64,000 nucleotides of DNA from an uncultured Candidatus Saccharibacteria bacterium (lineage in GTDB: Bacteria > Patescibacteriota > Minisyncoccia > Phycocordibacterales > Phycocordibacteraceae): contig CAZQGQ010000002.1 of NCBI GenBank assembly GCA_964593365.1, forward strand, positions 85,671 to 149,670, written 5' to 3'. Under the pieces are notes generated by a model. It searched no databases and was not told the origin of the DNA. It saw only the letters and a list, made by a program, of their open reading frames with translations. The position numbers were made by a program, and so were the translations under genes. Below are positions 8,774-63,191 of the stretch, one piece after another (positions within the stretch are counted from its first letter, which is position 1; each line of letters starts with the position of its first letter).

Positions 8774-8822
8774 CACTACCCTCCCGATGAGGCGAGCAAG
8801 GCGGATACACGCCCATATATTG

Positions 8823-8850
8823 ATTGTAGCTAAGGAGAGCTGCCGGTCAA
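8823..8850 (-). promoter_or_regulatory. Sigma70-like promoter TTGACC-N16-TACAAT for the 48-aa basic protein gene
   Basis: Read on the minus strand; it gives a 5' UTR of about 43 nt containing the GGGAGG SD. Confidence 0.5.
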
Positions 8851-9517: not shown

Positions 9518-9808
9518 AAAGGAAAACCGGCTTTCGCCGGCGATGCATTGATACTAGCAAGGAGAGGCCATTTTGTCAATGCCTATGACATCATTCATAC
9601 ATATGTCAATAGTAGCACTCGCTGTAATACCCTTATTCTAGGCCGTTTGCTGACGACCTCAGGCCCTTAATGAGTATTCCACAGCCAAAAGCCCTGACAG
9701 GTATCCGCTTCACCTAATCTTCCGGGTCCACATGATACAAAAGACCCTAGTCCGGTGCTGCCGGAGCCGTCTTACCCGTCTAAAATAGACCAATGCCCTA
9801 CCCTGGGA

Positions 9809-17831: not shown

Positions 17832-17883
17832 TTCCCAATCCTAAGATCACTATGACGCGAGCGTCGAATGTATACTGGAGGTC

Positions 17884-20642: not shown

Positions 20643-20664
20643 AGTTACATTATATCTTCTAGAT

Positions 20665-24376: not shown

Positions 24377-25642
24377 TTGATGAGCGATAAAAAGCAGCTT
24401 GATACTGAGCCTTATAAGGGCGTCCGGGACTTCTATCCAGCCGATATGGCAGAACGGAAGGCAATGTTTGGCGTTATCCGGAACGTGCTGACAAGCTACG
24501 GCTATGAAGAATACGACGCTTCCCCACTCGAGCGTTCTGAGTTGTATGAGAAGAAAGGTAACGAAGAAATAATCCGAGAGCAGACTTACAGTTTCGAGGA
24601 CCGCGGCGGAAGACGCATCACGCTTCGTCCTGAGATGACGCCGACCCTGGCCCGCATGGTCGCCGGCAAGCGCCGCGAACTTATATTCCCGCTCCGATGG
24701 TTCTCGATCGGAAACCGCTTCCGCTATGAGCGCATGCAGCGCGGGCGAACCCGCGAGTTCTATCAGACAGACGTGGACTTCATCGGTCTTCCTGAGGGCG
24801 AGGCAGATGTGGAGGCACTCACAATCGCAAGCACTGTTCTCAAAGCTTTTGGCGCAACAGAGAACGATTTCACCATCCGCGTAAGCTCGCGGGCGCTTCT
24901 TGGCGCTGCCTGCAAAGCCACCGGACTCACTGATGAGGAAGGCGTTCGAGCGTACTGGCAGCTCCTTGATAAGAAAGCAAAGATGCCTGCCGAAGAGTTT
25001 GAAGCTGCGCGAAAAGGAAATCCTGATCCGTTGGCTGCCGTTGAAGAAGCAACTGATCCTGAGGTGCGTGCCCAAAAAGAGAAGCTATTTGGGATGATCG
25101 AGACGATCAAGGCGCGCGGCATTACCAACATTTCCTTTGACCCAGAAATCGTACGCGGATTCGATTACTACACCGGCATGGTGTTTGAGGTATATGACAC
25201 CGATCCGAAGAACTCGCGCTCCCTCTTTGGCGGAGGTCGCTATGACGGACTGGTCGCCTTGTTTGGCGGCGATCCTATCCCTGCAGTTGGGTTTGCCTTC
25301 AGCGACGTTGTGATCCGAGACTTCCTTGAGATCCATAACTTACTACCGCAAGCTAAAAGCGTAGCGGGAGTCTATCTTGGAACTCCGAGCACCGATACGA
25401 TTCCAGCAGCTCAGGAGTTCGCAAAGACCCTCCGTGCAGCGGGCATCTCTGTCTTCGTAAACCTCTCCGACAAGGGCCTTGGAGACCAGGTAAAAAACGC
25501 TGACCGCCGCGGTATTCCCTTCTTCATTGCCTACGGACAAGACGAGGCGTCAGGAACCGAGATCCGCATCAAGAATCTTGCAACGGGAGAGGAGACAACG
25601 GTATCGAAAGCTGACGCAGCGAAGACACTAAGCGCGAAGTAG
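24377..25642 (+). CDS. hisS: Histidyl-tRNA synthetase
   Basis: Class II aaRS motifs, including the HisRS-specific RGFDYYTGMVFE and GGRYD. Confidence 0.9.
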   Translation: MMSDKKQLDTEPYKGVRDFYPADMAERKAMFGVIRNVLTSYGYEEYDASPLERSELYEKKGNEEIIREQTYSFEDRGGRRITLRPEMTPTLARMVAGKRRELIFPLRWFSIGNRFRYERMQRGRTREFYQTDVDFIGLPEGEADVEALTIASTVLKAFGATENDFTIRVSSRALLGAACKATGLTDEEGVRAYWQLLDKKAKMPAEEFEAARKGNPDPLAAVEEATDPEVRAQKEKLFGMIETIKARGITNISFDPEIVRGFDYYTGMVFEVYDTDPKNSRSLFGGGRYDGLVALFGGDPIPAVGFAFSDVVIRDFLEIHNLLPQAKSVAGVYLGTPSTDTIPAAQEFAKTLRAAGISVFVNLSDKGLGDQVKNADRRGIPFFIAYGQDEASGTEIRIKNLATGEETTVSKADAAKTLSAK

Positions 25643-26702: not shown

Positions 26703-26723
26703 TACCCATGCTATCCTTTTTGC

Positions 26724-27416
26724 ATGGATCAAAAGAACCCGTATTTGCTTCCGGTTGCGATCATTATTGCAGGCGCGATTCTAGCAGGCGCCATCTATCT
26801 TGTCCGGACGGGAGGAGTTATCGCAACGCCGATGGGAGACACGTCTCTTACTCGCCCTGTAGACGATACTGACCGTGTCGTTGGGAGCCCGGATGCTCCG
26901 GTCATGATCGTCGAATATTCCGATATCGACTGTGCGTACTGTAAAGACTTCCAGGCAGTTCTCGAGCAGCTTATGGCTGAGTACGGACCAGGCGGACAAG
27001 TTGCTTGGACATACAGGCACTTCCCCGTCCTTTCCCTGCATCCAAACGCAGCTCTCCATGCTGAAGCCGCAGAATGCGCAGGGTCGCTTGGTGGCACTAA
27101 TGCCTTCTTCCGCTTCATCGGTGCACTCCAGCAGGCTGCTCCTGACATCAACCAGTTCAGTCCTTCCGGATACGAAGGCGTCGTGACCTCGCTTGGCCTT
27201 TCGGTTGCCGACTTCAATAGCTGCGTTCAAAGCGACCGGTTCGTTGGAAAAGTGACAAGTGATTTTGAGAACGCGGTTGATGCTGGCGGAACAGGAACTC
27301 CTTACACGGTCATCTTAATTGAAGGAAGCGAACCGCTTTCCATTACTGGCGCTATACCCTACGCCGCGATGAAAGAGGTTATCGACCAGGCGCTTACGAA
27401 AGTCACGACGGAGTAA
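26724..27416 (+). CDS. DsbA-family thiol:disulfide oxidoreductase (BdbD-like), membrane anchored
   Basis: Redox active site DIDCAYCKDF and a cis-Pro region, with an N-terminal TM helix. Confidence 0.8.
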   Translation: MDQKNPYLLPVAIIIAGAILAGAIYLVRTGGVIATPMGDTSLTRPVDDTDRVVGSPDAPVMIVEYSDIDCAYCKDFQAVLEQLMAEYGPGGQVAWTYRHFPVLSLHPNAALHAEAAECAGSLGGTNAFFRFIGALQQAAPDINQFSPSGYEGVVTSLGLSVADFNSCVQSDRFVGKVTSDFENAVDAGGTGTPYTVILIEGSEPLSITGAIPYAAMKEVIDQALTKVTTE

Positions 27417-31544: not shown

Positions 31545-33212
31545 TTAAGCGAGCTTCGCGAGGCGCTCGGACGCTTCTTTGCATGCTTGAAGCGCTTGCT
31601 GTACTTCTGTATCGTCCTTGCTTGACTCAGCACGACGCAGGCGCGTCGTAGCTTGTTCAAGCGCTGCAACGAGAACGGAGCGCTCGAATGCGCTTAAGAG
31701 ATCCTGTGCTGCACGTTCTGCAGGCGACTCTCCGTAGAGAAGGCCGGCCTCAAAAAGGGCGCGCTCGGAGACAGGGTCGTCCCGTAGCGCTACACCACTA
31801 ATCCGAGCGTACTCGGCCCCGACCCATTTGGCAAGCTCGGTGCCCGGGTATGCCTGTGCGACGGCATGAATAAGCTCATCTCGCGGAGTTGCAAGCTGCG
31901 GCACGCTCGCTCCACTGGTTCCTTTGACCTCTGGTTCCTGCGGAAGCGTCTCCCCTTTTGGAAGAGAAGCACGTACTGCCTCAACGGAAGAACCAAGCGA
32001 ACGAGCAACGATGCTTACGAAGTGTTCACGCTCCAAGGGACTTTTGATCGCAGCGACTAGTGGCATCACAACGCGTTCAGCGGCAATCACGAGCTTATGC
32101 TGATCGGGCTCAGCTGCTGAGAGAACCGAGAGGAAGAACTCGATGATCGGCTCTGCTTCTTTGATACGGCGCACCAGGTCCTGCGGCGTCTCATGCGCGA
32201 GGTCTGCCGGATCCTTTCCGATAGGAAGTCGGACCGCCTTTACTCGCAAGCCTTCACGAAGCGCTGCGTGTGCGTTCTTAGCTGAGGCTGCAAGACCCGC
32301 GCGGTCCGCATCAAGGGCGAGCATCAGGTTCTCCGAATAGCGCTTGATAAGGGAGAGATGCTCACGAGAAAGCGCCGTACCAGAAAGCGCGATCGTATTC
32401 TTGAACCCGATCTGATGCATAAGCAGGAGATCGAACTGCCCCTCAACCAAGAGCGTGAATCCACGCTCCCGGATCGCATCCTTGGCCCGGTCCATCCCGA
32501 AGAGAACGCCTGACTTTCGGAAGAGGATCGTTTCAGGAGAATTGAGGTATTTGGCAGGATCCTCGCTTACAAGCGCGCGGCCAGTGAATGCGACTACCCG
32601 CCCTGCGGCGTCTCGTATCGGGAACATCAACCGGTTACGGAACCGATCGTAGTAGGTGCCCCGCTTCCCGTCTGCCTCTTTGATAAGTCCTGCTGACAGG
32701 AGCTCGTCGTTTGAGAACCCTGCAGTCGTGAGCTCTTCCAAAAGCCCTCGCCAGGCGTCAGGCGCATATCCTAAGTTCCACGATGCGATATTTTCTTTGG
32801 TGAGACCGCGCGAAAGCGCATAGCTATACGCAGCGCCCTTCAGGTCGAGATTCCTCGCATAGAAGCTTTCTGCGCGAGCCATTGCCTCTCGGATGCGCTC
32901 AACCTTCTTCGAGTCCTTGTTTCCTGCGCTGTATTCAAGCGTGACACCCGCTTTCTCTGCAAGAATCTTCAACGCTCCCTTGAAGTCCACGCCCTCCATC
33001 TTCTCGATGAAGCTAAACGCGTCTCCCCCCTGCCCCGATGAGAAGCAGTAGTAAGTGCCCCGGTCAGGCGAGACGAAGAACGACGGCGTCTTCTCCTTAT
33101 TGAAGGGAGAGAGTCCTTTGTAGTTTCTGCCAGCCTTAACAAGCTTGACGTAGGGGGTGACCACGTCGACGATCGAGAGCTTGTCTTTTATTTGTTGGAC
33201 GGTGTCAGCCAT
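31545..33212 (-). CDS. dnaG: DNA primase
   Basis: CHC2 zinc finger (YYCFSSGQGGDAFSF) and a Toprim domain. Start taken at MADTVQQIKDKL (track start 33269). Confidence 0.85.
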   Translation of the reverse strand: MADTVQQIKDKLSIVDVVTPYVKLVKAGRNYKGLSPFNKEKTPSFFVSPDRGTYYCFSSGQGGDAFSFIEKMEGVDFKGALKILAEKAGVTLEYSAGNKDSKKVERIREAMARAESFYARNLDLKGAAYSYALSRGLTKENIASWNLGYAPDAWRGLLEELTTAGFSNDELLSAGLIKEADGKRGTYYDRFRNRLMFPIRDAAGRVVAFTGRALVSEDPAKYLNSPETILFRKSGVLFGMDRAKDAIRERGFTLLVEGQFDLLLMHQIGFKNTIALSGTALSREHLSLIKRYSENLMLALDADRAGLAASAKNAHAALREGLRVKAVRLPIGKDPADLAHETPQDLVRRIKEAEPIIEFFLSVLSAAEPDQHKLVIAAERVVMPLVAAIKSPLEREHFVSIVARSLGSSVEAVRASLPKGETLPQEPEVKGTSGASVPQLATPRDELIHAVAQAYPGTELAKWVGAEYARISGVALRDDPVSERALFEAGLLYGESPAERAAQDLLSAFERSVLVAALEQATTRLRRAESSKDDTEVQQALQACKEASERLAKLA

Positions 33213-33272
33213 GGTGTTGATTGTACGCGAGAGAAACCACGAACCCGCCAGAGGCGGGTCCAAGGTCAAACA

Positions 33273-46848: not shown

Positions 46849-49056
46849 TTATTTTGCTACCTGCATTGCCTCTTCGAACTTGACTGAGAGGAGCTTGCTG
46901 ATGCCGTCGCCTCCCATAGTGACGCCGTACAAAATACCTGCACGACCCATGGTCTCGCGGTTGTGCGTGATAACGACGAGCTGCGAGCGCTTGGAGAGGC
47001 TATCGATCATGTCTCCGTAGCGGCGCGAGTTAGCTTCGTCGAGAGCCGCGTCGGTCTCATCAAGGATCAAAAATGGCGGCGGATTCACCTGGCTCATCGC
47101 GAAGATGAGCGCGATTGAGGTAAGTGCGCGCTCGCCTCCTGAAAGCTGCATAAGAGACTGCAGCCGTTTCTTAGGGAGATTCACCTGCACCTCAAGGCCA
47201 GGGCGTACCTCTCGCTGTACTTCTTCTGGAGCTTCGTCTTCTTCGTCCTCTTCAGCAGGAGCGATATCCTCAAGCACGAGCTTTGCTCCTCCTCCCCCGA
47301 ACATGAGCGCGAAGAACTCGGTAAACGATTCGTTCACCTTCGCCAGTCCTTCCGCAAAGTTCTTCGCAAGCTCCTCATCAAGATCGCGAATCAGCTCCTC
47401 GAGGCCGATGACTGAGTTGGCAAGATCTTGAAGCTCGGTAGCAAGGAACTCCTCGCGGTTCTTGGTTTCCATATATTCGCTTCGCACTTCTTCTCCGGTG
47501 CCTCCCGCCTCTTCAAGACGAATCTTCAGGCGCTCAAGGGTTCGCTTGCGGTCTTCTTGCACTTTGCGGTCTTCCTCGGGAAGTTCAGACAGCGGCTCGT
47601 ATGAAAAGGCTTGGCTTCCGGCAAGCGCGAGTACTTCTGCTCGCTCGCGTTCAAGCTCCTCGCCAAGGTAATTTAATTCTTTGATTCTTGCTTCAATGCG
47701 CGCGAGTGAAGATTCGAGCTTTGCGCGCGTTTCTGCAAGCTCAAGTATTCGGTGCTGATTCTCACGTCCGGTCTCCTCATGCGCCGTGCGCTCCTCGCGT
47801 GCCTTAGCAAGCACCTTCCGCGCTTCCTCTACGCGAAGCGCTATTGCGCGATCTTTATCTGAAAGCGCCTCTCGCTCTTTCTCAAACTTCTGCACGGCCT
47901 GCTCCTCATCTGCAAGATAGTCGCTCTCGCTTGCCCCATAGCGGTCAAAGAAGGCCATGACCGCAGAGCGAAGCGCTCGAAGGGCTGCAGAGAATGCGGA
48001 GATATCTGCTGTTTCAGACAGTGCGGTCTGTCGCTCTACTTCGTCTTTGAGGACCTTCAGGTCTTCGCGCGGGACTTTCACATACGGCTCGCGGGCTAGG
48101 AGTGCACTGCGACGCTTGGCCTCAGACAACGCTCCTTCAATACGACCCATGTCTCGCGAGAGATCGGACTGTTCTGCGATTGCACGATCAAGCTCGCGCT
48201 CTGCCTGGCGCACAGCTTCAATGCGCTTCATTCCTTCGCTCTCTCCCGTCGTCTCTCGCTCAAACACTGAAATTTCTTGCTCGGCAACAGCAAGGCGCGC
48301 TGACGTGTCGCGTTCCTCAGCTTCAGTCTTTACCCGCTCTACCGCAAGGTATTTTTCTTCTATTGCAAAGTATTCGCGCGCGGAGCCTGCAAGGTCTCGC
48401 CCGAGCTCTTCTGCGCGCTCCAACTTCTCTACCTGCTTCTGCAAGAACTTCAGGTGCGGAGAAAGTTCCCGACGAAGGGCTTCTACTTCCCGTACGTTGT
48501 CGCGAGTCTTATCGAGCTTTCGGATCGCTTCCTGCTTCTTGAATTCAAAGACCTTAAGGCCGAGCGCGTCCTCGAGCATGGCTCGGCGCTCACGCGGAGC
48601 TGAAAGCAAGATACGATCCGCTTCTCCTTGAGAAATGATGTGGTGACCGGTCTCGCCGATGTTTGCGGAAGCGAGGAGTTCCTGGATATCGCGGAGGCGA
48701 ACCTTGGAACCGTTGATGGAGTACTCGCTTGCTCCGTCTCGGAATACCGCACGCTCTATCTGTACCTCGTCAAAATCGATCTTAGGGAAGATGCGCTTGG
48801 TGTTATCAAAGATGATCACTACCGATGCACGGTTCGCGCGAGGGTTCGTATGTGAGCCCGCAAAAATAAGATCCTCGCTTCGCTTGCCGCGCATGCTTTT
48901 CATGGATTGTTCGCCAAGCGCGAAGCGGAAGGCTTCTGCGACGTTTGATTTACCTGAACCGTTAGGGCCCACAATGGCAGTAGCTGCCGACGAGAAATCG
49001 AGCACGGTTTTCCGTGCGAACGATTTGAACCCGACGACTTCAAGCCGCTTCAGCAT
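46849..49056 (-). CDS. smc: SMC-family ATPase, short form (approx. 736 aa, no recognisable hinge domain)
   Basis: SMC N-terminal head MLKRLEVVGFKSF...GPNGSGKSN, a long coiled coil, and a C-terminal signature LSGGERALTSIALIFA plus Walker B FLILDETDAALD. The track ORF extends to 49491, but the true start is the internal Met at 49056, with a -10 TATAAT 7 nt upstream. Confidence 0.8.
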   Translation of the reverse strand: MLKRLEVVGFKSFARKTVLDFSSAATAIVGPNGSGKSNVAEAFRFALGEQSMKSMRGKRSEDLIFAGSHTNPRANRASVVIIFDNTKRIFPKIDFDEVQIERAVFRDGASEYSINGSKVRLRDIQELLASANIGETGHHIISQGEADRILLSAPRERRAMLEDALGLKVFEFKKQEAIRKLDKTRDNVREVEALRRELSPHLKFLQKQVEKLERAEELGRDLAGSAREYFAIEEKYLAVERVKTEAEERDTSARLAVAEQEISVFERETTGESEGMKRIEAVRQAERELDRAIAEQSDLSRDMGRIEGALSEAKRRSALLAREPYVKVPREDLKVLKDEVERQTALSETADISAFSAALRALRSAVMAFFDRYGASESDYLADEEQAVQKFEKEREALSDKDRAIALRVEEARKVLAKAREERTAHEETGRENQHRILELAETRAKLESSLARIEARIKELNYLGEELERERAEVLALAGSQAFSYEPLSELPEEDRKVQEDRKRTLERLKIRLEEAGGTGEEVRSEYMETKNREEFLATELQDLANSVIGLEELIRDLDEELAKNFAEGLAKVNESFTEFFALMFGGGGAKLVLEDIAPAEEDEEDEAPEEVQREVRPGLEVQVNLPKKRLQSLMQLSGGERALTSIALIFAMSQVNPPPFLILDETDAALDEANSRRYGDMIDSLSKRSQLVVITHNRETMGRAGILYGVTMGGDGISKLLSVKFEEAMQVAK

Positions 49057-49071
49057 TGAGGCAATTATACC

Positions 49072-49116
49072 GTATATAAATGTGTTGACGCGCGCCCGTA
49101 TCAGGTAGCGCGCGTC
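49072..49116. repeat. 45-bp element containing a perfect inverted repeat GACGCGCGC-N12-GCGCGCGTC (copy 1)
   Basis: It lies between the end of small membrane gene 49146..49460 and the SMC promoter. The sequence is gtata-aaa-gtgttgacgcgcgcccgtatcaggtagcgcgcgtc. Confidence 0.8.
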
Positions 49117-49145
49117 TAAATCACCGTGAGGTGATGGGTGCCGTC

Positions 49146-49460
49146 TTAGGCGTATCTTGTTGGTTTCATCATAAAGCTGATGAGACCGACAAATCCCAAC
49201 AATACGGCGACTGCGGTGGTAATCGTCGTCAGAAGGCTCCAGTGGACGAACTGCGTGTGGGTGTCCTGGAATAGAAACACCGTAGCCCACATGATCAGGG
49301 CTGCCGCCGTCATGATGCAGCGCGAACCGCGAGGCCATCCGAAGCGAACTCCGAATCGCTCCGCGACAAGCACTACAAAGACAACGACAGTCGCCGGAAC
49401 CGCGAGCAGCAGCGCGAACTGAACTTCTAACGGAGAAAACGTGAAGAACGTTTGGGTCAT
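49146..49460 (-). CDS. Small membrane protein (3 TM), paralog A
   Basis: 104 aa with SD AAGGGG. It is similar in length and topology to the 49631..49915 ORF. Confidence 0.5.
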   Translation of the reverse strand: MTQTFFTFSPLEVQFALLLAVPATVVVFVVLVAERFGVRFGWPRGSRCIMTAAALIMWATVFLFQDTHTQFVHWSLLTTITTAVAVLLGFVGLISFMMKPTRYA

Positions 49461-49565
49461 CGGTTGTAAGCCCCTTGCTCTCGTACCGCACGAGAGCCTC
49501 GTTGAGGACTATGACACTAACAGCCGTCTTTGTCTAATTCAGTATAAATCGGTTACGGATATGCA

Positions 49566-49630: not shown

Positions 49631-49915
49631 TTATGCCGGCCCGTATTTTCTCCACCATCGAAGCACGAGGCACCCGATGAAATAGAGCATGGCCAAGCCG
49701 AACAGTGTGGTCCCGATGTCCCACGGTTTATAGTCAGTCCAAGCGGACTCGAACAGACATGCCACAGAACCTGCGGAACACGCCGTCGCGAGAAAGAACG
49801 CTTGAAGGATTGGCTTACGCCGCTCCATCGCCGCCATCAGAAGAGCAATGCCTCCGATGATGGCAACCAACGCAACCGTGAGAATAATAACGGGTTCGGA
49901 CGAGAATATCGTCAT
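49631..49915 (-). CDS. Small membrane protein (3 TM), paralog B
   Basis: ATG start at MTIFSSEPV (the track start 49942 is a GTG). Confidence 0.45.
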   Translation of the reverse strand: MTIFSSEPVIILTVALVAIIGGIALLMAAMERRKPILQAFFLATACSAGSVACLFESAWTDYKPWDIGTTLFGLAMLYFIGCLVLRWWRKYGPA

Positions 49916-49968
49916 GAGTGTTACCCCATACCTCTGTACCACACAGAGGCTTCGAAAGAACTATAACA

Positions 49969-50652
49969 CTACCATCCGCTCTTGTCTAGTCCGGCCTGGG
50001 CCGCTGCTTGTTCCGCTTCCTGCTTGCTCTTCCCTACCCCTCGAGCGATCTCCTTCTCACCTATGTAAACGCCAACAGTGAAATCGCGGTCATGGTCCGG
50101 ACCGTCTTCGCGGATCGTCTTGTATGCAGGAGTGATTCCCTTATGTTCCTGCGCTGCTTCCTGGAACTTACTTTTCGCATCCTGCCACGCGCGCGCCTCG
50201 ATGACCGGATCGAGCTTCGGGAACAAATGCTTTATGAGAAAGGCGTCAGCAGCTTCATATCCCTGATCAAGATAGAGGGCGCCAAGCAATGCCTCGAAAG
50301 CGTTTGCGAGAATGATCTGACGAGCACGTCCCGTGTCGCGCTTTTCCCCGCGCGAGAGAAGCAGCATGTCATTGATCCCGAGCTTCTCGGCAGTCTCTGC
50401 AAGCGAGACGGTATTCACAAGAGCCGCACGAAAGGCAGTCAGTTCTCCCTCCGGCTTTTGCGGAAACTTCGTGAAAAGAAACTGGGTCGCGGAGAGCTCG
50501 AGCACGGCATCCCCCAGAAACTCAAGCCGCTCGTTATGCGCCTTCGAGCTCTTGTTCTCGTTCAGGTAGGAGCGGTGCGTCAGCGCCTCCTCGAAGAGGT
50601 CGAGGTTAGAAAAAGTGAGCCCGAGCTTTTGCGCACACGCATTAAAATCCAT
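49969..50652 (-). CDS. rnc: Ribonuclease III
   Basis: RNase III signature ERLEFLGDAVLEL and a C-terminal dsRBD. Confidence 0.9.
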   Translation of the reverse strand: MDFNACAQKLGLTFSNLDLFEEALTHRSYLNENKSSKAHNERLEFLGDAVLELSATQFLFTKFPQKPEGELTAFRAALVNTVSLAETAEKLGINDMLLLSRGEKRDTGRARQIILANAFEALLGALYLDQGYEAADAFLIKHLFPKLDPVIEARAWQDAKSKFQEAAQEHKGITPAYKTIREDGPDHDRDFTVGVYIGEKEIARGVGKSKQEAEQAAAQAGLDKSGW

Positions 50653-52821: not shown

Positions 52822-52893
52822 AAAATAACTATAGCATCGCGGTAAAATCCGGGATGCTACGCGTTTGGAAGGCCTTTGTTGTATCCTTCAGGT

Positions 52894-55800
52894 ATGGCCG
52901 GCCGGTTCATCCATTTACATACCCACAGCCACTACAGCTTCCTTCAGGCCCTCCCGAAGGTTAATGAGCTTGTGGACAAGACGAAAGAGGAAGGAATGGA
53001 CGCCGTAGCGCTCACCGACTCCGGCAACCTCCATGGCGCGATCGAGTTTTATAAAGCCGCGACTAAGGCTGGGATAAAGCCGATCATCGGCGTTGACGCG
53101 TATGTTGCTCCCCGCTCACGCTTTGATAAGGAGCGCCAGGAAGATTCACATCGAACACGCATCGTTCTTTTAGCTGAGAACATGGTGGGCTACAAGAACC
53201 TCCTGAAGCTTGTCACCAAATCATTTACCGAAGGATTCAACGACCGTCCGCGCATGGACCGCGAGCTATTGAAAGAACACTCGGAAGGATTGATCGCTAT
53301 CATGCCGTCCTTTGCAGGCGATGTCCCTCTCTTGCTTCGCGCAGGCGACGCCGCGGGAGCAGCAGGTGCGCTCGCCGAATACCAGAGCATCTTCGGCAAA
53401 GACAATCTCTATCTTGAAATCTCCCACCACCCGAAGGTCGAAGGACATAAGCGAGTGATGGATGAGGTGAAGAAGCTTGCGGGAGACTCTGGCGCAAAGC
53501 TCGTCGCGCAGCATGATGTGTATTACCTCTCTCCTGACGACCGCGAAGCGCGTGAAGTGATGAAGCGCATCCAGAACGCGCACCAGGCACCAGGCTACAG
53601 CGCAGAGGAAGACTTCTCCTTTGTCTCAGAGAAAGACATGCGCAAGTGGTTTGCGGACGTTCCGGAGGCAGTGGATGAGAGCGGGCGCATCGCTGATCGC
53701 TGCAACATTGAGATGACGCTTGGGCAGTGGGTCTTTCCTGAGATCCCGACGGACGAGGGCAAGACGCACGACCAGATGCTTCGCGAGCGAGCGTATGCCG
53801 GGCTTACGGCGCGCGCCATGGAAAAGTCTGATGACGTTGAGGTCCGTATCGAGTACGAGCTCAAGATCATCGGCGATAAGGGCTTTGCTCCTTATTTCCT
53901 CGCCGTTTCCGACCTCCTTACCTTTGCAAAGCAAAACGGCATCCTGACCACGACTCGCGGATCTGCAGGAGGCTCTTTGATCTCGTACCTGGTCGGCATC
54001 ACGAACGTCGACCCAATGTTCTACAAGCTTCCCTTCGAGCGCTTCTTGAACCCCGAGCGTCCGAAAGCTCCCGACATCGACATGGACTTTGCTGACGATC
54101 GGAGAAACGAGGTGATCGCCTACGCCAAGCAAAAGTATGGCGAGGACCGCGTAGCGCAGATCGGAACATTCGGCACCATGCTCGCACGAGCCGCTGTTCG
54201 AGACGTTGCGAGAGCGTTGGGCCATTCCTACGGAACGGGCGACCGGATCGCAAAACTGATCCCGCTTGGCTCTCAAGGATTCCCGATGACAATCGCGCGT
54301 GCCATGGAAATGGAAGATGATTTGAAAGCGCTCTATCGAGAGGACGAAGACGTGCGCGAAATCATTGATCTTGCAAAGCGAATCGAGGGCTGCGTGCGGC
54401 ATGTCGGCGTGCACGCCGCAGGCGTCGTTGTCGCTCCTTCACCACTCACTGATTGGACGCCAGTGCAGTTTGACCCGAAGGGCGAAGGCATTCTTATTAC
54501 GCAGTACGACATGTATTCGATCACGGACGAATACGGAGGCGTGGGTCTCCTGAAGTTCGACTTCCTGGGAATCAAGAACCTCGCCATTCTTGCAGCCGCC
54601 GTTGACCGGGTCGCGGAAACCAAAGGCATATACATAGACATCGAGACGGTGCCCCTTGATGACGACAAGACTTTCGCGATGCTCGCTCGAGGCGAGACAG
54701 AAGGCACCTTCCAGCTAAACGGTTCAGGCATGACCCGCTACCTCAAGGAACTTCGTCCCACCACCATCCACGACATCAACGCCATGGTGGCGCTCTATCG
54801 TCCGGGACCGATGGAAACGATCCCGCAGTACATCGAGCGAAAGCGAAACCCTAAGCTCATCCGCTTCATTGATGAGCGCATGAAGGAATACCTCGATACG
54901 TCCTACGGCGTCATCGTGTATCAAGACGACGTGCTTTTGACCGCAGTGAACCTTGCCGGCTACTCCTGGCTTGAAGCTGACACGCTTCGAAAAGCCATGG
55001 GTAAGAAGATTCCGGAAATCATGATGGCCGAGAAGGACAAGCTCATCAAAGGTTTTGTTGAGTACGGCAAGCTCTCTGCCGATAAGGCAGAAGCCATTTG
55101 GAAACTGATTGAACCGTTTGCAGCCTACGGCTTTGGTAAGGCTCACGCCGCTTCCTACGGCAAGGTGGCCTACCAGACCGCCTACCTGAAAGCCAACTAC
55201 CCGGTTGAATACATGGCAGCGGTACTCTCTGCTGATGCGGGAGACGTTGAGAAGATTTCTATCTCTGTTGCTGAGTGCGATCGCCTTAAGATTCCCGTAC
55301 TCCCACCAGACATTAATGAGAGCCGATCAACCTTCACCGTAGTGGATGAAGGCAAGGCGATTCGCTTCGGCCTCTCCTCGATCAAGAACTTCGGCGAGGG
55401 CATCTCGGAAGCCATTATGACCGAGCGCGAGGCGAACGGCGCCTTCAAGGACCTCGCCGATTTCCTCTCCCGAATCGACTCCAGGAACTTGAATAAGAAA
55501 TCTCTTGAATCCTTGATCCGCTGCGGAGCGCTCGATCGCTTCGGGGAACGCGGGAATCTGCTTCATAACGTCGAAGTGCTTCTCACCTTCCATCGCGAGG
55601 CAAGCGCTCCAGCCGAGCAGGACTCCTTGTTTGCAGCAGCCGCGCCAACGCTCGCCTTCCCACAAGAAGGAGCGCCTCTCTCAATGATCCAAAAGCTTGC
55701 GTCTGAGAAAGAGCTTCTTGGCATTTATGTCTCCGGACACCCGCTCGATGCTCACGCAGATAAGACAAGCAAGGCTTCTGTTTCCATTGGACAGATAAAG

Positions 55801-56061
55801 GCAGAGCCGATGCCGGGTATTCCGCTTATTCTCCCCGTCCTTATTTCTGAGGTACGCACCATCCTCACCAAGAAAGGCGAGAAGATGGTCTTCCTTAAAC
55901 TTGAAGACAAGAGTGGGGACATTGAAGCTGTTATCTTCCCCAAGCTCTATAAGGAACACGCGGACAAGATCGTCACGGGCGCCTGTCTTCTGGTGAAAGG
56001 AAGTGTTTCTAACCGCAACGGCGAGCTCTCGCTTTCCATAGAGAATCTCAAGTCTATTTAG
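52894..56061 (+). CDS. dnaE: DNA polymerase III alpha subunit
   Basis: PHP domain HLHTHSHYS, the polymerase core and an OB domain. Start at MAGRFIHLH (track start 52876). Confidence 0.95.
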   Translation: MAGRFIHLHTHSHYSFLQALPKVNELVDKTKEEGMDAVALTDSGNLHGAIEFYKAATKAGIKPIIGVDAYVAPRSRFDKERQEDSHRTRIVLLAENMVGYKNLLKLVTKSFTEGFNDRPRMDRELLKEHSEGLIAIMPSFAGDVPLLLRAGDAAGAAGALAEYQSIFGKDNLYLEISHHPKVEGHKRVMDEVKKLAGDSGAKLVAQHDVYYLSPDDREAREVMKRIQNAHQAPGYSAEEDFSFVSEKDMRKWFADVPEAVDESGRIADRCNIEMTLGQWVFPEIPTDEGKTHDQMLRERAYAGLTARAMEKSDDVEVRIEYELKIIGDKGFAPYFLAVSDLLTFAKQNGILTTTRGSAGGSLISYLVGITNVDPMFYKLPFERFLNPERPKAPDIDMDFADDRRNEVIAYAKQKYGEDRVAQIGTFGTMLARAAVRDVARALGHSYGTGDRIAKLIPLGSQGFPMTIARAMEMEDDLKALYREDEDVREIIDLAKRIEGCVRHVGVHAAGVVVAPSPLTDWTPVQFDPKGEGILITQYDMYSITDEYGGVGLLKFDFLGIKNLAILAAAVDRVAETKGIYIDIETVPLDDDKTFAMLARGETEGTFQLNGSGMTRYLKELRPTTIHDINAMVALYRPGPMETIPQYIERKRNPKLIRFIDERMKEYLDTSYGVIVYQDDVLLTAVNLAGYSWLEADTLRKAMGKKIPEIMMAEKDKLIKGFVEYGKLSADKAEAIWKLIEPFAAYGFGKAHAASYGKVAYQTAYLKANYPVEYMAAVLSADAGDVEKISISVAECDRLKIPVLPPDINESRSTFTVVDEGKAIRFGLSSIKNFGEGISEAIMTEREANGAFKDLADFLSRIDSRNLNKKSLESLIRCGALDRFGERGNLLHNVEVLLTFHREASAPAEQDSLFAAAAPTLAFPQEGAPLSMIQKLASEKELLGIYVSGHPLDAHADKTSKASVSIGQIKAEPMPGIPLILPVLISEVRTILTKKGEKMVFLKLEDKSGDIEAVIFPKLYKEHADKIVTGACLLVKGSVSNRNGELSLSIENLKSI

Positions 56062-56125
56062 CGCTCATTGAGCGAAGTGCTTGAAAGTGCTATACGTAGC
56101 GTAAGGCAATGGAAGGAGTAAAGCC

Positions 56126-56335
56126 ATGCCCGATGACGAACGTGATCTTGACGCAACTGGCGGTTCGGAACTCATGGAGGAAATTCGGCAGTACAAGCGC
56201 AGCAATCCGCAGCGGTTTGGTGAAGCACGAATACTCTTCGCCCTTCTGAATCGGATTGAAGCACTCGAAACCCGACTAGCCGCCCACGAGCAGCCCGGCC
56301 CAACCAGCGGCGAGGGGGATCACCCGCTGAGATAA
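56126..56335 (+). CDS. Small hypothetical protein (69 aa)
   Basis: Strong SD GGAAGGAG 8 nt upstream, and a terminator hairpin downstream at about 56362..56390. Confidence 0.45.
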   Translation: MPDDERDLDATGGSELMEEIRQYKRSNPQRFGEARILFALLNRIEALETRLAAHEQPGPTSGEGDHPLR

Positions 56336-56361
56336 CCTCTCAGCCTCCGACACTAAGAACG

Positions 56362-56390
56362 CGGCGGTCCCAAGGGATCGCCGTTGTTTT
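56362..56390 (+). terminator. Intrinsic terminator after the 69-aa ORF
   Basis: cggcggtcccaagggatcgccg followed by ttgtttt. Confidence 0.55.
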
Positions 56391-56395
56391 ATCCT

Positions 56396-56423
56396 TTGAC
56401 AAGAAAAAAGCCCCTCCTATACT
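56396..56423 (+). promoter_or_regulatory. Sigma70-like promoter TTGACA-N16-TATACT driving the thrS leader
   Basis: Consensus -35 and a near-consensus -10. The -10 ends 7 nt before the leader-peptide ATG. Confidence 0.6.
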
Positions 56424-56430
56424 GGAACCT

Positions 56431-56466
56431 ATGCAGCTTCAGACAACTACCACCACCGCTCTCTAG
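56431..56466 (+). CDS. thrS leader peptide MQLQTTTTTAL (five consecutive Thr codons), leaderless
   Basis: ATG CAG CTT CAG ACA ACT ACC ACC ACC GCT CTC TAG, read directly. The Thr codons overlap hairpin segment 1 of the attenuator. Confidence 0.6.
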   Translation: MQLQTTTTTAL

Positions 56467-56530
56467 CGCTTGCGGCGTGGTAGTTACTCCTTTCGAAACC
56501 TACCCCGCCCAAGCGGGGATTTTTATTTAA
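56446..56530 (+). promoter_or_regulatory. Transcription attenuator with alternative hairpins 1:2, 2:3 and 3:4, ending in an intrinsic terminator (approx. 56503..56529) 22 nt before thrS
   Basis: Segments 1 (56446-59) and 2 (56472-84) pair over 12 bp. Segment 2 pairs with segment 3 (56500-08) over 9 bp with a 3-nt bulge. Segments 3 and 4 form the terminator ccccgc-ccaa-gcgggg followed by atttttattt. Confidence 0.6.
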
Positions 56531-56551
56531 CGACGTATAATAGCCATCACC

Positions 56552-58303
56552 ATGAACCCAGCATCTAAGGAACTCGAAGCAAAACGCCACACGCTCGCCC
56601 ACCTGCTTGCCGCTGCAGTTATGAAAATGCATCCGGACGCAAAGCGCACCATCGGTCCGGCTATCGACGACGGCTTCTATTTCGACTTCGAGTTTTCAAG
56701 CCCGCTGTCTGAGAAAGACTTCCCCAAGCTTGAGAAGGAAATGCGTCGCCTCCTTCCTTCCTGGAAATCCTTTGAGAAGTTCGACCTCTCCCCTGAACAG
56801 GCAAAGGAGGAGTACCCGGGCAACCCCTACAAGCATGAGCTTATCGACGAGTTTTCAAAAGATGGCGGTACCCTCTCCTTCTACAAATCCGGTGAGTACT
56901 GGGATCTCTGCCGCGGCGGCCACGCCGAGAATCCAGCCAAGGAAATAGCTTCTGACTCATTCAAGCTTGACCGGGTCGCAGGAGCGTATTGGCGAGGCGA
57001 TGAGAAGAACACGATGCTCACCCGTATCTATGCGCTTGCCTTTGATACCAAGGAAGAGCTCGATGCATATATCGCACAACGAGAAGAAGCCAAGAAGCGC
57101 GATCACCGCGAGCTTGGGGAGAAACTCGATCTCTTCCACTTTGACGAGGCCATCGGAAAAGGGCTTCCTATCTGGCTTCCCAAAGGCAACATCATCAAGG
57201 AAGAACTAGAGCGGTGGGCAAAAGATACTGAATCAGAATGGGGCTACGACCGTGTGACAACTCCTATCATCACCAAGGAGGACCTCTTTTACACCTCTGG
57301 TCACCTTCCCCTCTACAAAGAAAGTATGTACGCGCCGATACAGATTGAGGAAGAGACTTACTACATCAAGCCGATGAACTGTCCCTTCCATCACAAGGCG
57401 TATGCCGCTCGACCAAAGAGCTACCGCGATCTTCCTGTGCGCTACGCAGAATATGGATGGTGCCACCGTTTTGAGGATTCCGGCAGCCTGTTCGGCCTTA
57501 TGCGGGTTCGAGGAATGCAGATGAACGATGCGCACATTTATATCCAGAAAGAGAATGCCGTTGAAGAGTTTGTGCGGGTGATTCAATTGCATGAGTACTA
57601 CTACAAAACCCTCGGTATTAAGAACTACGAGATGGAACTCGCACTTCGAGACCCTTCTAAGATGGACAAATACCATGGAGACGAGGAGGACTGGAAGGAT
57701 GCCGAACGGATGACTATCGAAGCTATGGAAAAATCCGGCGTTCCATTCAAGGTGGTCAACGAAGGCGCCGCATTCTACGGACCAAAAATGGACTTCCAAA
57801 TCTACTCTTCTATTGGACGTTCCTTTACTGCCTCGACCAACCAATTGGACTTGTTCATGGGCAAGCGTTTCGGGCTTGAGTATGTAGACGCAGACGGTAC
57901 TCGCAAGACCCCCGCGATCATCCACCGAGCCCCCCTTGGCACTCACGAACGATTTATTGGATTCCTTATTGAGCACTATGGAGGCGCCTTCCCGCTTTGG
58001 CTTGCACCGGTCCAAACGCGCATTCTCCCGGTCTCTGAAAAGCACGCCGCCTACGGTACCGAGCTCTTTACCGCCCTCAAGGCAGCCGGTATTCGCGTAG
58101 AGCTTGATAGCGCAAACGACTCTCTGGGCAAGCGCATACGAAACGCGAAGATGGAAAAGGTTCCCTACCTGCTTGTCGTTGGCGATGCGGAGATAGAGGG
58201 AAAAACGGTCACTGCAGAAAGCAGGGACGGCGGAAAGCTCGAGCCTATGAGCATCGAGGCGTTTATCGAGCGAGCCAAGGAAGAGATCAAGACTCGCGCC
58301 TAA
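56552..58303 (+). CDS. thrS: Threonyl-tRNA synthetase (no N-terminal TGS domain)
   Basis: Starts in the second additional domain (HTLAHLLAAAV). Class II catalytic core and a C-terminal anticodon-binding domain are present. A TATAAT lies 10 nt upstream of the ATG. Confidence 0.9.
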   Translation: MNPASKELEAKRHTLAHLLAAAVMKMHPDAKRTIGPAIDDGFYFDFEFSSPLSEKDFPKLEKEMRRLLPSWKSFEKFDLSPEQAKEEYPGNPYKHELIDEFSKDGGTLSFYKSGEYWDLCRGGHAENPAKEIASDSFKLDRVAGAYWRGDEKNTMLTRIYALAFDTKEELDAYIAQREEAKKRDHRELGEKLDLFHFDEAIGKGLPIWLPKGNIIKEELERWAKDTESEWGYDRVTTPIITKEDLFYTSGHLPLYKESMYAPIQIEEETYYIKPMNCPFHHKAYAARPKSYRDLPVRYAEYGWCHRFEDSGSLFGLMRVRGMQMNDAHIYIQKENAVEEFVRVIQLHEYYYKTLGIKNYEMELALRDPSKMDKYHGDEEDWKDAERMTIEAMEKSGVPFKVVNEGAAFYGPKMDFQIYSSIGRSFTASTNQLDLFMGKRFGLEYVDADGTRKTPAIIHRAPLGTHERFIGFLIEHYGGAFPLWLAPVQTRILPVSEKHAAYGTELFTALKAAGIRVELDSANDSLGKRIRNAKMEKVPYLLVVGDAEIEGKTVTAESRDGGKLEPMSIEAFIERAKEEIKTRA

Positions 58304-58305
58304 GC

Positions 58306-58560
58306 CTACTTCCCTTCCTGGGAGAGCGCTTTCACGATGTCGTCTATCGTGAGCTCGTTGCGGTCCTTTTTGAGCGAACTGAACCCTTCATGGGACGAGT
58401 AGGTCATGCGGGGGCGAGACGCTCTGGTTGGCGGCTGCACGGGACCATGATGCGCGTCTTTCTTCTTGAAGAAGGCCGGGAAGACCTTAAACAGGAGCAC
58501 GTACGCTATGAAGGCGCTCCAGAGCACGAGGCCAAGGATGAAGAGGATGAGTTCGATCAT
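58306..58560 (-). CDS. Small membrane protein, hypothetical
   Basis: 84 aa; an N-terminal TM helix and a charged C-terminal tail. Confidence 0.4.
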   Translation of the reverse strand: MIELILFILGLVLWSAFIAYVLLFKVFPAFFKKKDAHHGPVQPPTRASRPRMTYSSHEGFSSLKKDRNELTIDDIVKALSQEGK

Positions 58561-58634
58561 GGTTTCCTAAAGTATGCCACAGGCAGGTATAGAAAAAGCC
58601 CCAGGTTGTTACCCGGGGCTTTTTCTTCTAGCGC

Positions 58635-60008
58635 TTATGCTCCAAGAGCAAGCTTTGCGCCGCGGATGCCGGTCATGCGGCTTCCTTCGATCATCGCGTC
58701 GATGCGAGAGGCGATACCGTCGGTGTCGCTCACTGCTGCACGAATCTCTGAAAGGAATTCCTCAATGCCCGTACCGTTAGCTGCTGCCGTTCGAAGCTGC
58801 TCGATAACGTTCTCGTTGTCATTGGCTTCAAGGGCCGTGACGAATGCGTTTACGTCTGTTGCAGATTCTTCTTCGGTCTCGTCAGCAAGCTCAGAGTAAG
58901 AAGCGTTTCCTGCGTAGGCTGGGACGAGGGAGCGGAACATGCCCTTTGAGAACATGAAGTACGCTACGCCGCCTGCACCTGCGATAAGAAGCACCCAGTA
59001 CGCCATGATTGCAGGAGAGATGTCTCCAAGACCCGTGTAAGGGATCGAAGAGAGGTAGACGACCTGCGGAGGGTTCTGCGGTGGCTCATCAGTGAAGACG
59101 GTGCTTGAGAACGCATTGTCGTTGTCATCATCGTCCTCATCAACGTTCACCGTAACCGAACAGGTTGCTTCGTCTCCGTCGTTATCTTCTACCGTCATGC
59201 GGAAGGTCGTGTCCTCGTCAACGGTTACGCGCTCTTCGCCGCCGTCCTCGTCAACTGAACCGATACCCTGGTTGATGCTAGCCTCTTCTGCGTCATCGGT
59301 CTCCCATGAGAGTGTTACGCGGTCTCCCTCGTCAACGCTCTTGTCGGAAGCCTCAAGGTCGCAAGATGGCTCGTCATCGTTGTTGTTATCGTTGTCATCA
59401 TCATCGTCGTCATCATCGTTTGAACCGTTGGTGATGTTGATGTTCGAATTGTTGTTCTGATCATCGTCATCATCATTGTTGTTGCTATTGGATCCTGAGT
59501 AGATGCCCGGGCCGCCGACATACTTGTTCTTGTATGCGTAGTCACCGAAGTCAGGGTAATTCTGGTTCTGGTTGGTATTCGTGCTGTTCTCCTGGTTCGT
59601 GTTGTTCTCGTTTGAGATTGCAACGCCGCCGATGTAGTTGTCGTTTCCGTTCTGATTGATGTTGACGTTGTTGTTGTAGGTGGTCTCGTTGTCGTTGTCC
59701 TGCCAGCTAAAGTTGAGGTTAAGGCCGCCTCCATAGCTCGATCCGTAGTTAGAACCCGATCCGTAGTTGTAGGTCGGAGTCTTCGGATAGCTGTAGGTGG
59801 GCTTGTACCCTCCGTAGCTACCGCAACACGAAGTCGTGCCGTAGATCGTGCCAGCGCTTGAGTAGCCGCTGCCACTTCCGTAGCTGCCACCAAGATCGTA
59901 CGTGCTGTACGCAAGAGCAGCAGACGGGATGGCAAAGCCAACACCGACGACCACCGCGATCACTGCAAGAACCTTTGCGAACCCATTGCCCGTGATGTTT
60001 TGTTTCAT
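58635..60008 (-). CDS. Surface protein with extreme low-complexity regions, an acidic Cys-bracketed domain, a TM helix and a C-terminal cytoplasmic tail
   Basis: A signal peptide is followed by G/S/Y-rich, N/Q-rich and poly-D tracts. An approx. 75-aa domain runs from CDLEASDKSVDEGDRVTLSWE to ATCSVTVNVDED. Then comes IPYTG plus a TM helix, with about 100 aa C-terminal to it. Confidence 0.6.
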   Translation of the reverse strand: MKQNITGNGFAKVLAVIAVVVGVGFAIPSAALAYSTYDLGGSYGSGSGYSSAGTIYGTTSCCGSYGGYKPTYSYPKTPTYNYGSGSNYGSSYGGGLNLNFSWQDNDNETTYNNNVNINQNGNDNYIGGVAISNENNTNQENSTNTNQNQNYPDFGDYAYKNKYVGGPGIYSGSNSNNNDDDDDQNNNSNINITNGSNDDDDDDDDNDNNNDDEPSCDLEASDKSVDEGDRVTLSWETDDAEEASINQGIGSVDEDGGEERVTVDEDTTFRMTVEDNDGDEATCSVTVNVDEDDDDNDNAFSSTVFTDEPPQNPPQVVYLSSIPYTGLGDISPAIMAYWVLLIAGAGGVAYFMFSKGMFRSLVPAYAGNASYSELADETEEESATDVNAFVTALEANDNENVIEQLRTAAANGTGIEEFLSEIRAAVSDTDGIASRIDAMIEGSRMTGIRGAKLALGA

Positions 60009-61309: not shown

Positions 61310-62008
61310 CTATGTCCCGTTTCCAAGGGCCTCGGTTGAATAAAGCTTCGCAGTCACGATGAAGCGGTCTGACTTTGCCCCGAAGGTGTCGCAGGTAGCG
61401 AGCGTGAGCTTCGAGCCTGAGACATCGAGCGGAATCTCGCCGCTTTCTGTGTTTGACTGCTCCACCGTTTCTACGGCGTAGGTATAGGCCTTATCTTTGC
61501 CATACACCGTGATCAGGTCCCCTTCCTTGAGGTTCTGGATCCCGTTGAAGGCCTTATAGGCCTGGTTATGGACCACTGGCAGGTAGCTTGAGTGCCCGAA
61601 GATAAGCACGTTTCCTTCAGCCCCGAGCGTTCCGGTTCCTGGGTAGCGGACAGCCCCCGTAAGCAAGGCTTGGTCGAGCGCGCTGATGCGGGTGGTGTTT
61701 GGGTTTGAGACGTTAGCCTCGACGCCTATCGCAGGGATCTTGATACGAACTGGGAGCTCCCCTTCTGCAACGAGCGCGACTGCTGGAGTCTCAGGTTCGG
61801 CAACTATTGGTGCGTTAGTTGGCATCTGACTAAAAGCAGCAAAGGATGACGGGATCATGCCGATACCAGAGAGCGTCTGGAACGAAAGCAAAAAGATAAG
61901 TGCAAAAAAGAAAAGGAAGCTCCACTTATGGGCGAGCACTTCCTCTACAGGGGTTTTTGCAGGCGCTGCGTGATGCGCGTTACTCATAGAAATACTATAC
62001 CACAGCAA
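61310..62008 (-). CDS. Sortase-family transpeptidase
   Basis: N-terminal TM helix. Catalytic His in VLIFGHS, catalytic Cys in LTLATCDT, and a conserved Arg (RFIVTAKL). Confidence 0.8.
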   Translation of the reverse strand: MLWYSISMSNAHHAAPAKTPVEEVLAHKWSFLFFFALIFLLSFQTLSGIGMIPSSFAAFSQMPTNAPIVAEPETPAVALVAEGELPVRIKIPAIGVEANVSNPNTTRISALDQALLTGAVRYPGTGTLGAEGNVLIFGHSSYLPVVHNQAYKAFNGIQNLKEGDLITVYGKDKAYTYAVETVEQSNTESGEIPLDVSGSKLTLATCDTFGAKSDRFIVTAKLYSTEALGNGT

Positions 62009-62080
62009 ATATGCTTCTTGTCAACCCCCGTTTCCCCTTTGTCTTGACAAAAGTATTGGGTATGGGGTAGATTACCGGGA

Positions 62081-63114: not shown

Positions 63115-63142
63115 TTGACTTTAAACATTAAAATGTTATACT
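63115..63142 (+). promoter_or_regulatory. Sigma70-like promoter TTGACT-N16-TATACT
   Basis: It begins immediately after the terminator U-tract. The -10 lies 7 nt before a leaderless ATG that opens a 7-codon mini-ORF (MPQLSRG). Confidence 0.5.
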
Positions 63143-63191
63143 AATATCAATGCCGCAGTTGTCACGCGGTTAGAGTTCGGGAGCGTTTGTT

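Follow-up and report, generated by a model that had tools for sequence, protein, structure and literature searches.

The 64-kb stretch of DNA analysed here, hereafter called the window, comes from an uncultured member of the Patescibacteria (Candidate Phyla Radiation, CPR) of the Parcubacteria/Kaiserbacteria type and has a GC content of 52-55%. On its plus strand lies thrS (56552-58303), coding for a threonyl-tRNA synthetase (ThrRS) of 583 amino acids (aa), and directly upstream of this gene we found a consensus-like promoter, a short open reading frame (ORF) with a run of threonine codons and an intrinsic terminator. Based on these features and on their predicted folding, we consider it quite probable that these parts together form a ribosome-mediated transcription attenuator of the trp/pheST type, in which translation of a leaderless leader peptide would sense charged tRNA-Thr and control thrS.

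The promoter, here named P1 (56396-56423, + strand), is predicted from a -35 box TTGACA (56396-401) and a -10 box TATACT (56418-423) separated by a 16-nt spacer, and it is the sole 11/12 match to the sigma-70 consensus in the window. Seven nucleotides (ggaacct) after the -10 box, an ATG at 56431 opens an ORF of 11 codons (56431-56466, + strand; ATG CAG CTT CAG ACA ACT ACC ACC ACC GCT CTC TAG, with the stop at 56464-66), which has no Shine-Dalgarno (SD) sequence and would encode the peptide MQLQTTTTTAL. The original prediction for this locus had proposed both a promoter TTGACA-N16-TATACT 7 nt before an ATG and this peptide with its five Thr codons, and both are indeed present. Because the leader ATG lies only 7 nt past the -10 box, the transcription start site is predicted at 56430/56431, which would make the leader ORF leaderless. 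The five consecutive Thr codons (ACA ACT ACC ACC ACC, 56443-56457, + strand) are the proposed sensor of charged tRNA-Thr. Such an (ACN)5 run occurs once in the window when both strands are counted, against a first-order Markov expectation of 0.05. Scanning the window for a -10 box combined with a mini-ORF and a U-run yielded no further attenuator besides the thrS leader; hisS (24380-25642) has a plain leaderless promoter.

The geometry of the leader was then compared with that of gene starts in the same genome, using 50 non-overlapping long ORFs of the window and their internal ATGs as background. A TANNNT box stands 5-10 nt before the start codon in 21 of the 50 genes, compared with 2.4% of internal ATGs, and its spacing peaks sharply at 6-7 nt (14/50 genes versus 0.9% at internal ATGs). 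SD-like 4-mers precede 8 of the 50 genes, which is about background, so that no SD enrichment is seen. Ordinary genes show the leader's arrangement (TATACT, 7 nt, ATG) as well, for example the one starting at 17884 (TATACT, ggaggtc, ATG). These signatures suggest that the organism initiates translation mostly on leaderless or SD-less mRNAs. A leaderless leader peptide fits this genome, as genes with a TANNNT box close to the start are abundant and SD sequences are not enriched; the absence of an SD, pointed out in the original prediction, is therefore normal here, with the start site itself predicted from the sequence. In the same survey, the start boxes (17867-17886, 20643-20660, 26706-26726 and 61990-62030, for example) were often found in the extended form TGnTAnnnT, and several starts of longest ORFs (TTG or GTG) were clearly wrong, the true ATG following a -10 box (24380, dnaE at about 52894, 31545-33269).

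Predicted alternative helices of the thrS leader

Three helices can be drawn in the leader. The first, hairpin 1:2 (56445-56485, + strand), would act as an anti-antiterminator and possibly as a pause hairpin; it is found in the minimum free energy (MFE) and centroid structures and pairs 56445-53 with 56477-85 (9 perfect bp, AACUACCAC:GUGGUAGUU) and 56456-59 with 56472-75. Its segment 1 (56445-59) overlaps the Thr codons, as had been proposed, and its segment 2 spans 56472-85. The second helix, antiterminator 2:3 (56467-56515, + strand), appears in masked folding and joins a 5' arm at 56467-83 with a 3' arm at 56500-15. With 15 bp and two 1x1 mismatches, it takes up the 5' arm, the loop and half of the 3' arm of the third helix, the intrinsic terminator 3:4 (56503-56528, + strand). 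This terminator, found by the terminator scan and in the MFE and centroid structures, consists of CCCCGC-CCAA-GCGGGG (56503-18; a stem of 6 bp, all GC) followed by A-UUUUU-A-UUU (56519-28). The thrS ATG at 56552 is located 23-27 nt past the U-tract. Constrained folding thus reproduced the mutually exclusive helices 1:2, 2:3 and 3:4 of the original prediction, which had implied a smaller 2:3 helix and had placed its GC hairpin and U-tract, correctly recognized, 22 nt before thrS.

The MFE of the leader is -31 kcal/mol (z = -3.0 with respect to dinucleotide shuffles). We simulated the ribosome by masking the 5' part of the leader during folding. In the unmasked, free RNA, hairpin 1:2 and the terminator form together (-31 kcal/mol). 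A mask that places any of Thr codons 1-4 in the A site gives the antiterminator (-23.6 to -25.3 kcal/mol) instead of the terminator, which alone is worth about -12 kcal/mol. A mask that places the stop codon in the A site hides the antiterminator's 5' arm, and the terminator is restored. When the 36-nt spacer was shuffled 1000 times, with the ORF and the terminator kept fixed, 39 shuffles (3.9%) gave an antiterminator and 10 (1%) showed all three states of the switch. The trp-type logic, including termination by default when no ribosome loads, therefore holds in silico.

The mechanism suggested by these structures would proceed as follows. P1 would fire strongly, and transcription would begin at the AUG of the 11-codon ORF or 1 nt before it, so that a 70S ribosome could bind the 5'-terminal AUG and translate the mini-ORF. 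With ample Thr-tRNA, the ribosome would reach the UAG (56464-66) and cover 56467-77, and the terminator would form, giving a terminated transcript of about 95 nt that stops about 25 nt before thrS. Without a loaded ribosome, hairpin 1:2 would sequester the 5' arm of the antiterminator, and the terminator would form as well. When Thr-tRNA is scarce, the ribosome would stall on Thr codons 1-4 (ACA/ACU/ACC) and hold segment 1; provided that pausing keeps RNA polymerase coupled to the ribosome, the freed segment 2 would pair with 56500-15 before segment 4 is made, and RNA polymerase would read into thrS. The codon run, the promoter geometry, the terminator and the stall-dependent folds all agree with the attenuation logic originally proposed for thrS.

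Candidate proximal promoter P2 and the thrS region of close relatives

A candidate promoter, P2, lies still closer to thrS, where a -10-like TATAAT box (56536-56541, + strand) stands 10 nt before the ATG; it would give a leaderless or nearly leaderless thrS mRNA. If active, P2 would probably supply this mRNA at a basal, constitutive level, to which the attenuator would add an inducible boost. For comparison we used 160 thrS loci from GTDB genomes and Joint Genome Institute (JGI) metagenomes, together with 7 contigs of the closest proteins (loci are cited below by their L numbers). All nine of the leader-less close relatives listed carry TGnTATyCT 8-9 nt before the thrS ATG, and the position of P2 matches this conserved promoter. 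Relatives that keep synteny have the terminator of the upstream gene, directly followed by the extended -10 box TGnTATyCT, 8-9 nt and the thrS ATG, a spacing that, as far as sequence can tell, indicates a leaderless thrS.

In the window, thrS is preceded by dnaE (52876-56061) and by an ORF of 69 aa (56126-56335) with its own intrinsic terminator (56361-56389, + strand, from the terminator scan), which forms the 5' boundary of the thrS control region. This terminator is homologous to the one found directly before the thrS promoter in relatives (alignment A1, columns 27-52), and the window carries about 150 extra nt with respect to the synteny-keeping relatives in the same alignment. The MAFFT placement in A1 suggested that the leader arose when the thrS promoter and the 5' end of the coding region were duplicated; local alignment scores were not above those of shuffles, and this origin was rejected. 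One relative with 78% ThrRS identity, L003, has at ~2330-2470 a promoter TTGACA-17-TACAGT and a structured leader of about 130 nt whose terminator lies just before the thrS promoter; it shows no Thr run, T-box motif or Rfam match and may be a leader or a small RNA.

The thrS product itself has the Pfam domains tRNA_SAD, tRNA-synt_2b and HGTP_anticodon and lacks an N-terminal TGS domain, and its closest homologues, at 81% identity or less, are annotated as Patescibacteria/Parcubacteria/Kaiserbacteria. Immediately downstream of thrS, on the opposite strand, a Thr-rich ORF of 457 aa (58635-60008, - strand) without a Pfam match holds three separate (ACN)4 runs, for example at 59633-59698. No tRNA genes were found in the 64-kb window.

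Further promoters with short leaders were noticed elsewhere in the window. In one case (9517-9579, - strand), a hairpin resembling a terminator (GCCGGCGAAAGCCGG and UUUUCC) lies downstream of a promoter TTGACA-17-TAGTAT and directly before the ATG of the ORF 8909-9517; it may be an attenuator or a structured 5' untranslated region. Two near-duplicate leaders, each with a promoter and a hairpin, stand at ~49943-49990 and ~49492-49545 (- strand) before the ORF 49631-49942 and the SMC gene 46849-49491; each consists of TAGACAA…TGTTAGTGTYATAGT and then a 9-bp hairpin with the loop G(Y)GGUAC. Two more promoters with 10/12 consensus matches precede leaderless mini-ORFs, one of 25 aa (MGVYPPCSPHREGSDDQEKREEKTD) at 8739-8850 (- strand), within a 680-nt stretch without a long ORF, and one of 7 aa (MPQLSRG) at 63115-63173 (+ strand).

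Thr leaders and T-boxes upstream of thrS in other lineages

We counted upstream mini-ORFs and T-box motifs in the 137 unique thrS loci. Mini-ORFs with at least four consecutive Thr codons were found in five of them (L041, L049, L052, L053 and L147). Threonine was the top residue for runs of at least four and of at least five among the upstream mini-ORFs, and no such Thr run occurred in the reverse-strand control. Within one ThrRS clade of the Microgenomates, leaders with four or five Thr codons precede thrS(-infC) in six of the eight members sampled: L041 (2259-2433), L049 (2188-2337), L053 (2341-2460), L147 (1162-1291), L169 (~360-470; MKEINRITTTTTCS) and L170 (~360-470; MKLSMLHITTTTRP). No Thr leader was seen in the clade members L171 (Levybacteria) and L172/L173 (Roizmanbacteria). 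The ThrRS proteins of L041, L049, L053 and L147 are mutual best matches at 62-69% identity, with the next best at about 55%.

In masked folding, L049, L053, L147, L169 and L170 formed an antiterminator with the ribosome at Thr codons 1-3 and a terminator with the ribosome at the stop codon, through helices whose sequences differ from one leader to the other. A -10 box stands 6 nt before the leader start codon in L041, L049 and L147. Before thrS itself, TANNNT at a gap of 5-11 nt (a -10-like box, 8-9 nt) was present in 4 of the 7 other Thr-leader loci versus 5 of the 34 T-box loci. No nucleotide similarity between the leader of the window and the other Thr leaders was detected by blastn-short, and no Rfam family covers the Microgenomates Thr leaders. 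Relaxing the criteria to Thr-dense mini-ORFs brought in further cases, L030 among them, but no convincing one. The Thr leaders upstream of thrS in these lineages support the attenuator reading by analogy, their support being that of non-homologous analogues and not of covariation.

In two of these loci (L053:2273-2365 and L169:280-370) the Thr-leader ORF begins 7-13 nt past the 3' end of a tRNA-Val and has no -10 box of its own; in L053 a tRNA-Asp precedes the tRNA-Val. The tRNAs beside the two leaders are thus Asp and Val, not Thr, and the leader 5' end may arise there by tRNA processing of a co-transcript. The contig of L049 (JBGSBR010000004.1) is labelled Weeksellaceae (Bacteroidota); its ThrRS, however, lacks TGS and nests in the Microgenomates clade (L053 and L147 are 69% identical to it), and the promoter resembles a sigma-70 promoter. 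This contig is probably misbinned. Outside this clade, in L052 (Latescibacterota), thrS is preceded at ~2098-2270 by an upstream ORF (uORF) of 36 codons, in which nine Thr codons follow one another (…PTATTTTTTTTTMCAG), and by a terminator of 10 bp. No such run was flagged in L129, L133, L145 and L150, the loci of the set most closely related to L052.

The T-box motif, searched by regular expression, occurs in 32 of the 137 unique upstream regions. Four Patescibacteria leaders, L009 (2233-2436), L043 (166-229), L087 (1134-1310) and L092 (1216-1425), are divergent T-boxes with sub-threshold Rfam scores of 27-38 bits against a gathering score of 93, so divergent that standard annotation would miss them. 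The thrS genes of the CPR that are under T-box control likewise have no SD. Two Anaerolineae-type loci carry a short uORF, located at ~-110 to -50 from thrS in L059 and at ~-108 to -48 in L124, with the thrS T-box terminator standing before it in both loci and the T-box motif itself seen in L059. These uORFs share a conserved peptide opening with three Thr codons (VKTTTPQRPGGCVPLHFGTA, MSTTTPQRPGGCVLLYSGTA), preceded by an SD in L059, and may add another layer of control or belong to a conserved RNA element.

Alternative readings and comparison with known systems

Several observations weigh against the attenuator reading. As thrS has its own -10 box 10 nt upstream, its expression would not depend on read-through. 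Conservation in related genomes, which the original prediction had named as a check, was not found: the cassette is not in the close relatives L001-L008, L161, L162 and L164-L168, and the Thr run and the helices are absent from all the relatives sampled at 72-81% ThrRS identity. The only other copy of the leader, in L163, is identical and from the same organism, which makes a covariation analysis of this leader impossible. The same sequence is found on the JGI contig Ga0226658_10041208 (sample 3300022222). Any read-through mRNA has no SD, and 85 nt lie between the leader stop and the thrS ATG. In absolute terms Thr runs are only modestly enriched (the five loci among 137), the predicted terminator of L041 persists in every masked-folding state, and MFE folding of L052 shows no antiterminator.

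Since thrS keeps the proximal -10 box, control is probably partial, the attenuator gating only the transcripts that start at P1. Because close relatives do not have the cassette and the window is longer by the ~150 nt mentioned above, the cassette looks like a lineage-specific gain. Since T-box-controlled thrS genes also lack an SD, translation of a leadered thrS mRNA without SD, as would be needed after read-through, appears to be normal in the CPR. In L041, the stretch after the stop codon matches the 3' arm of the terminator by eye at 14 of 15 positions and could serve as antiterminator.

The same observations could also be read in another way, namely that the leader is an independent small transcription unit (a small RNA or a micropeptide gene), with thrS transcribed from the proximal TATAAT only and with a Thr run that is not sensing. 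We regard this as unlikely. It would suit the efficient-looking terminator about 95 nt after P1, the positional conservation of the proximal -10 box with the thrS promoter of relatives, the fact that these relatives express thrS without such a leader and the SD-less read-through mRNA, but it leaves unexplained why the sole (ACN)5 run in 64 kb adjoins thrS, why an antiterminator appears exactly upon occupancy of the Thr codons (as in only 1% of shuffles) and why non-homologous Thr-run mini-ORFs with terminators recur before thrS elsewhere.

That the attenuator also has a second function, with the terminated leader RNA of about 95 nt or its peptide acting in trans, seems very unlikely, and it would be an addition to the attenuator reading and not an alternative to it. 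As no other promoter of the window comes as close to the consensus as P1, the terminated RNA should be abundant, and rnTrpL of Sinorhizobium is reportedly an attenuator-derived small RNA with such a trans activity. Neither a target nor a conserved seed was identified for the thrS leader, however, and it has no homologues outside this organism.

Sensing without a ribosome, by a reduced T-box-like tRNA switch or by a ThrRS operator, its GGU-containing segment 2 imitating the anticodon arm of tRNA-Thr, is about as improbable, if not slightly more so. The divergent T-boxes upstream of thrS in relatives (motif in 32/137) and the U-GGU-A of segment 2, complementary to ACC codons, would speak for it. 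The structure of the leader does not: at about 95 nt it leaves no room for a Stem I, a specifier loop and the 7-nt T-box bulge are lacking (the antiterminator mismatches are the two 1x1 only), its GGU triplets are base-paired in every predicted state instead of being displayed in a loop, and without an SD a translational operator would have nothing to occlude. A search of 400 nt around the leader (56250-56650) gave no match to the T-box family RF00230 or to the Thr_leader family RF00506 at E<=10, and the T-box sequence (..GGUGGNACCGCG..) is absent from the leader by inspection, the regular expression having been run on relatives only. The features of an E. coli-type thrS translational operator are not found either, as there is no SD, GGU lies in stems and no structure is predicted for the 25 nt before the ATG.

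Least probable of all is that a promoter-like site, a short ORF and a hairpin came together between two genes by chance: consensus scans across 55000-59500 did find promoter-like and terminator-like sites at about shuffled expectation, but the joint occurrence of (ACN)5, an 11/12 promoter at leaderless spacing, z = -3 and a 1% switch before thrS is very unlikely.

The attenuator reading has a close parallel in pheM-pheST of E. coli, where ribosome stalling on a run of Phe codons in a leader peptide controls phenylalanyl-tRNA synthetase. Both have an aminoacyl-tRNA synthetase (aaRS) gene as target, a run of cognate codons, helices 1:2, 2:3 and 3:4 and an intrinsic terminator, and in both, as in T-box systems, low charged tRNA would lead to more synthetase. 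The pheM leader is translated from an SD on a leadered RNA, whereas that of the window starts at the predicted 5' end without SD; it also belongs to another amino acid and another phylum and has no sequence relationship to pheM. With the enterobacterial thrL of thrABC (RF00506) the window element shares a Thr-codon-rich leader peptide gating an intrinsic terminator; thrL, in contrast, serves a biosynthetic operon and not thrS, mixes Thr and Ile codons and depends on an SD. No Rfam family reached its gathering score in the whole window. The best Rfam match in 56250-56650, NmsRb (25 bits against a gathering score of 52, E = 0.066), reflects only a generic shape of hairpin plus terminator and was rejected.

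Leaderless leader peptides are known from other phyla. In Streptomyces lividans they precede thrS (thrL-thrS), leuS, trpS and alaS, and thrL there has two Thr codons and, according to the authors, no clear U-tract terminator (PMC8079986); a report on Deinococcus deserti describes leaderless leader peptides upstream of aaRS genes (PMC4007540). The novelty claimed in the original prediction was for this reason overstated. The Streptomyces and Deinococcus leaders share with the window element a -10 box about 6-7 nt before the start, the absence of an SD, cognate codons before an aaRS gene and a host rich in leaderless genes. Unlike the Streptomyces thrL, the window element combines an uninterrupted run of five Thr codons with a canonical terminator and a full three-helix switch, and unlike both groups it belongs to a Patescibacteria host and precedes a thrS that has no SD and keeps a candidate proximal promoter.

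With the thrS T-boxes (Firmicutes, and in divergent form Patescibacteria and Chloroflexi) the element shares the target gene, the tRNA-Thr charging signal and the terminator/antiterminator output, and the T-boxes of Patescibacteria sit at the same position. The difference lies in the sensor, as uncharged tRNA binds the ~200-nt T-box RNA directly, while here sensing would pass through a translating ribosome. Swaps between T-box and leader-peptide sensors at orthologous genes have been documented (PMC2965389). The Microgenomates leaders resemble the window element in having an ORF with 4-5 consecutive Thr codons, an antiterminator, a terminator, a -10-like box and thrS; their ORFs have 14-17 codons, and their ThrRS forms a different clade, at 50-56% identity. 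Most of them are two-state, with the antiterminator in the free RNA, whereas the window leader has a trp-like 1:2 and terminates by default. Taken over all these loci, we lean, if only slightly, towards the view that leaderless Thr mini-ORF attenuators are recurrent in Patescibacteria, independently evolved, uncatalogued, alternating with T-boxes and typically combined with a proximal leaderless promoter.

In our literature search we found no report of leader-peptide attenuation, T-boxes or leaderless translation in the CPR/Patescibacteria. The thrS leader would then be an unusually clean example of an attenuator in a phylum apparently without an earlier description, in a probable dual-promoter arrangement. 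The advance is incremental, since the mechanism is textbook and leaderless aaRS leader peptides are known in Actinobacteria and Deinococcus. The genomes of Patescibacteria are tiny, encode few recognisable regulators and lack amino-acid biosynthesis, and to our knowledge little has been established about how these bacteria regulate core translation genes. For annotators, the locus would add a pattern outside Rfam, in which a -10 box is followed after 6-7 nt by a mini-ORF with a run of cognate codons and then by a terminator. One locus that carries a T-box, a Thr leader or nothing, with leaders that are not homologous, would point to rapid turnover and convergent invention of attenuators, and the cassette of the window would be a recent lineage-specific gain. 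If the reading is true, these bacteria, in spite of their minimal set of regulators, would monitor the charging of tRNA-Thr through the coupling of ribosome and RNA polymerase on leaderless, SD-less transcripts.

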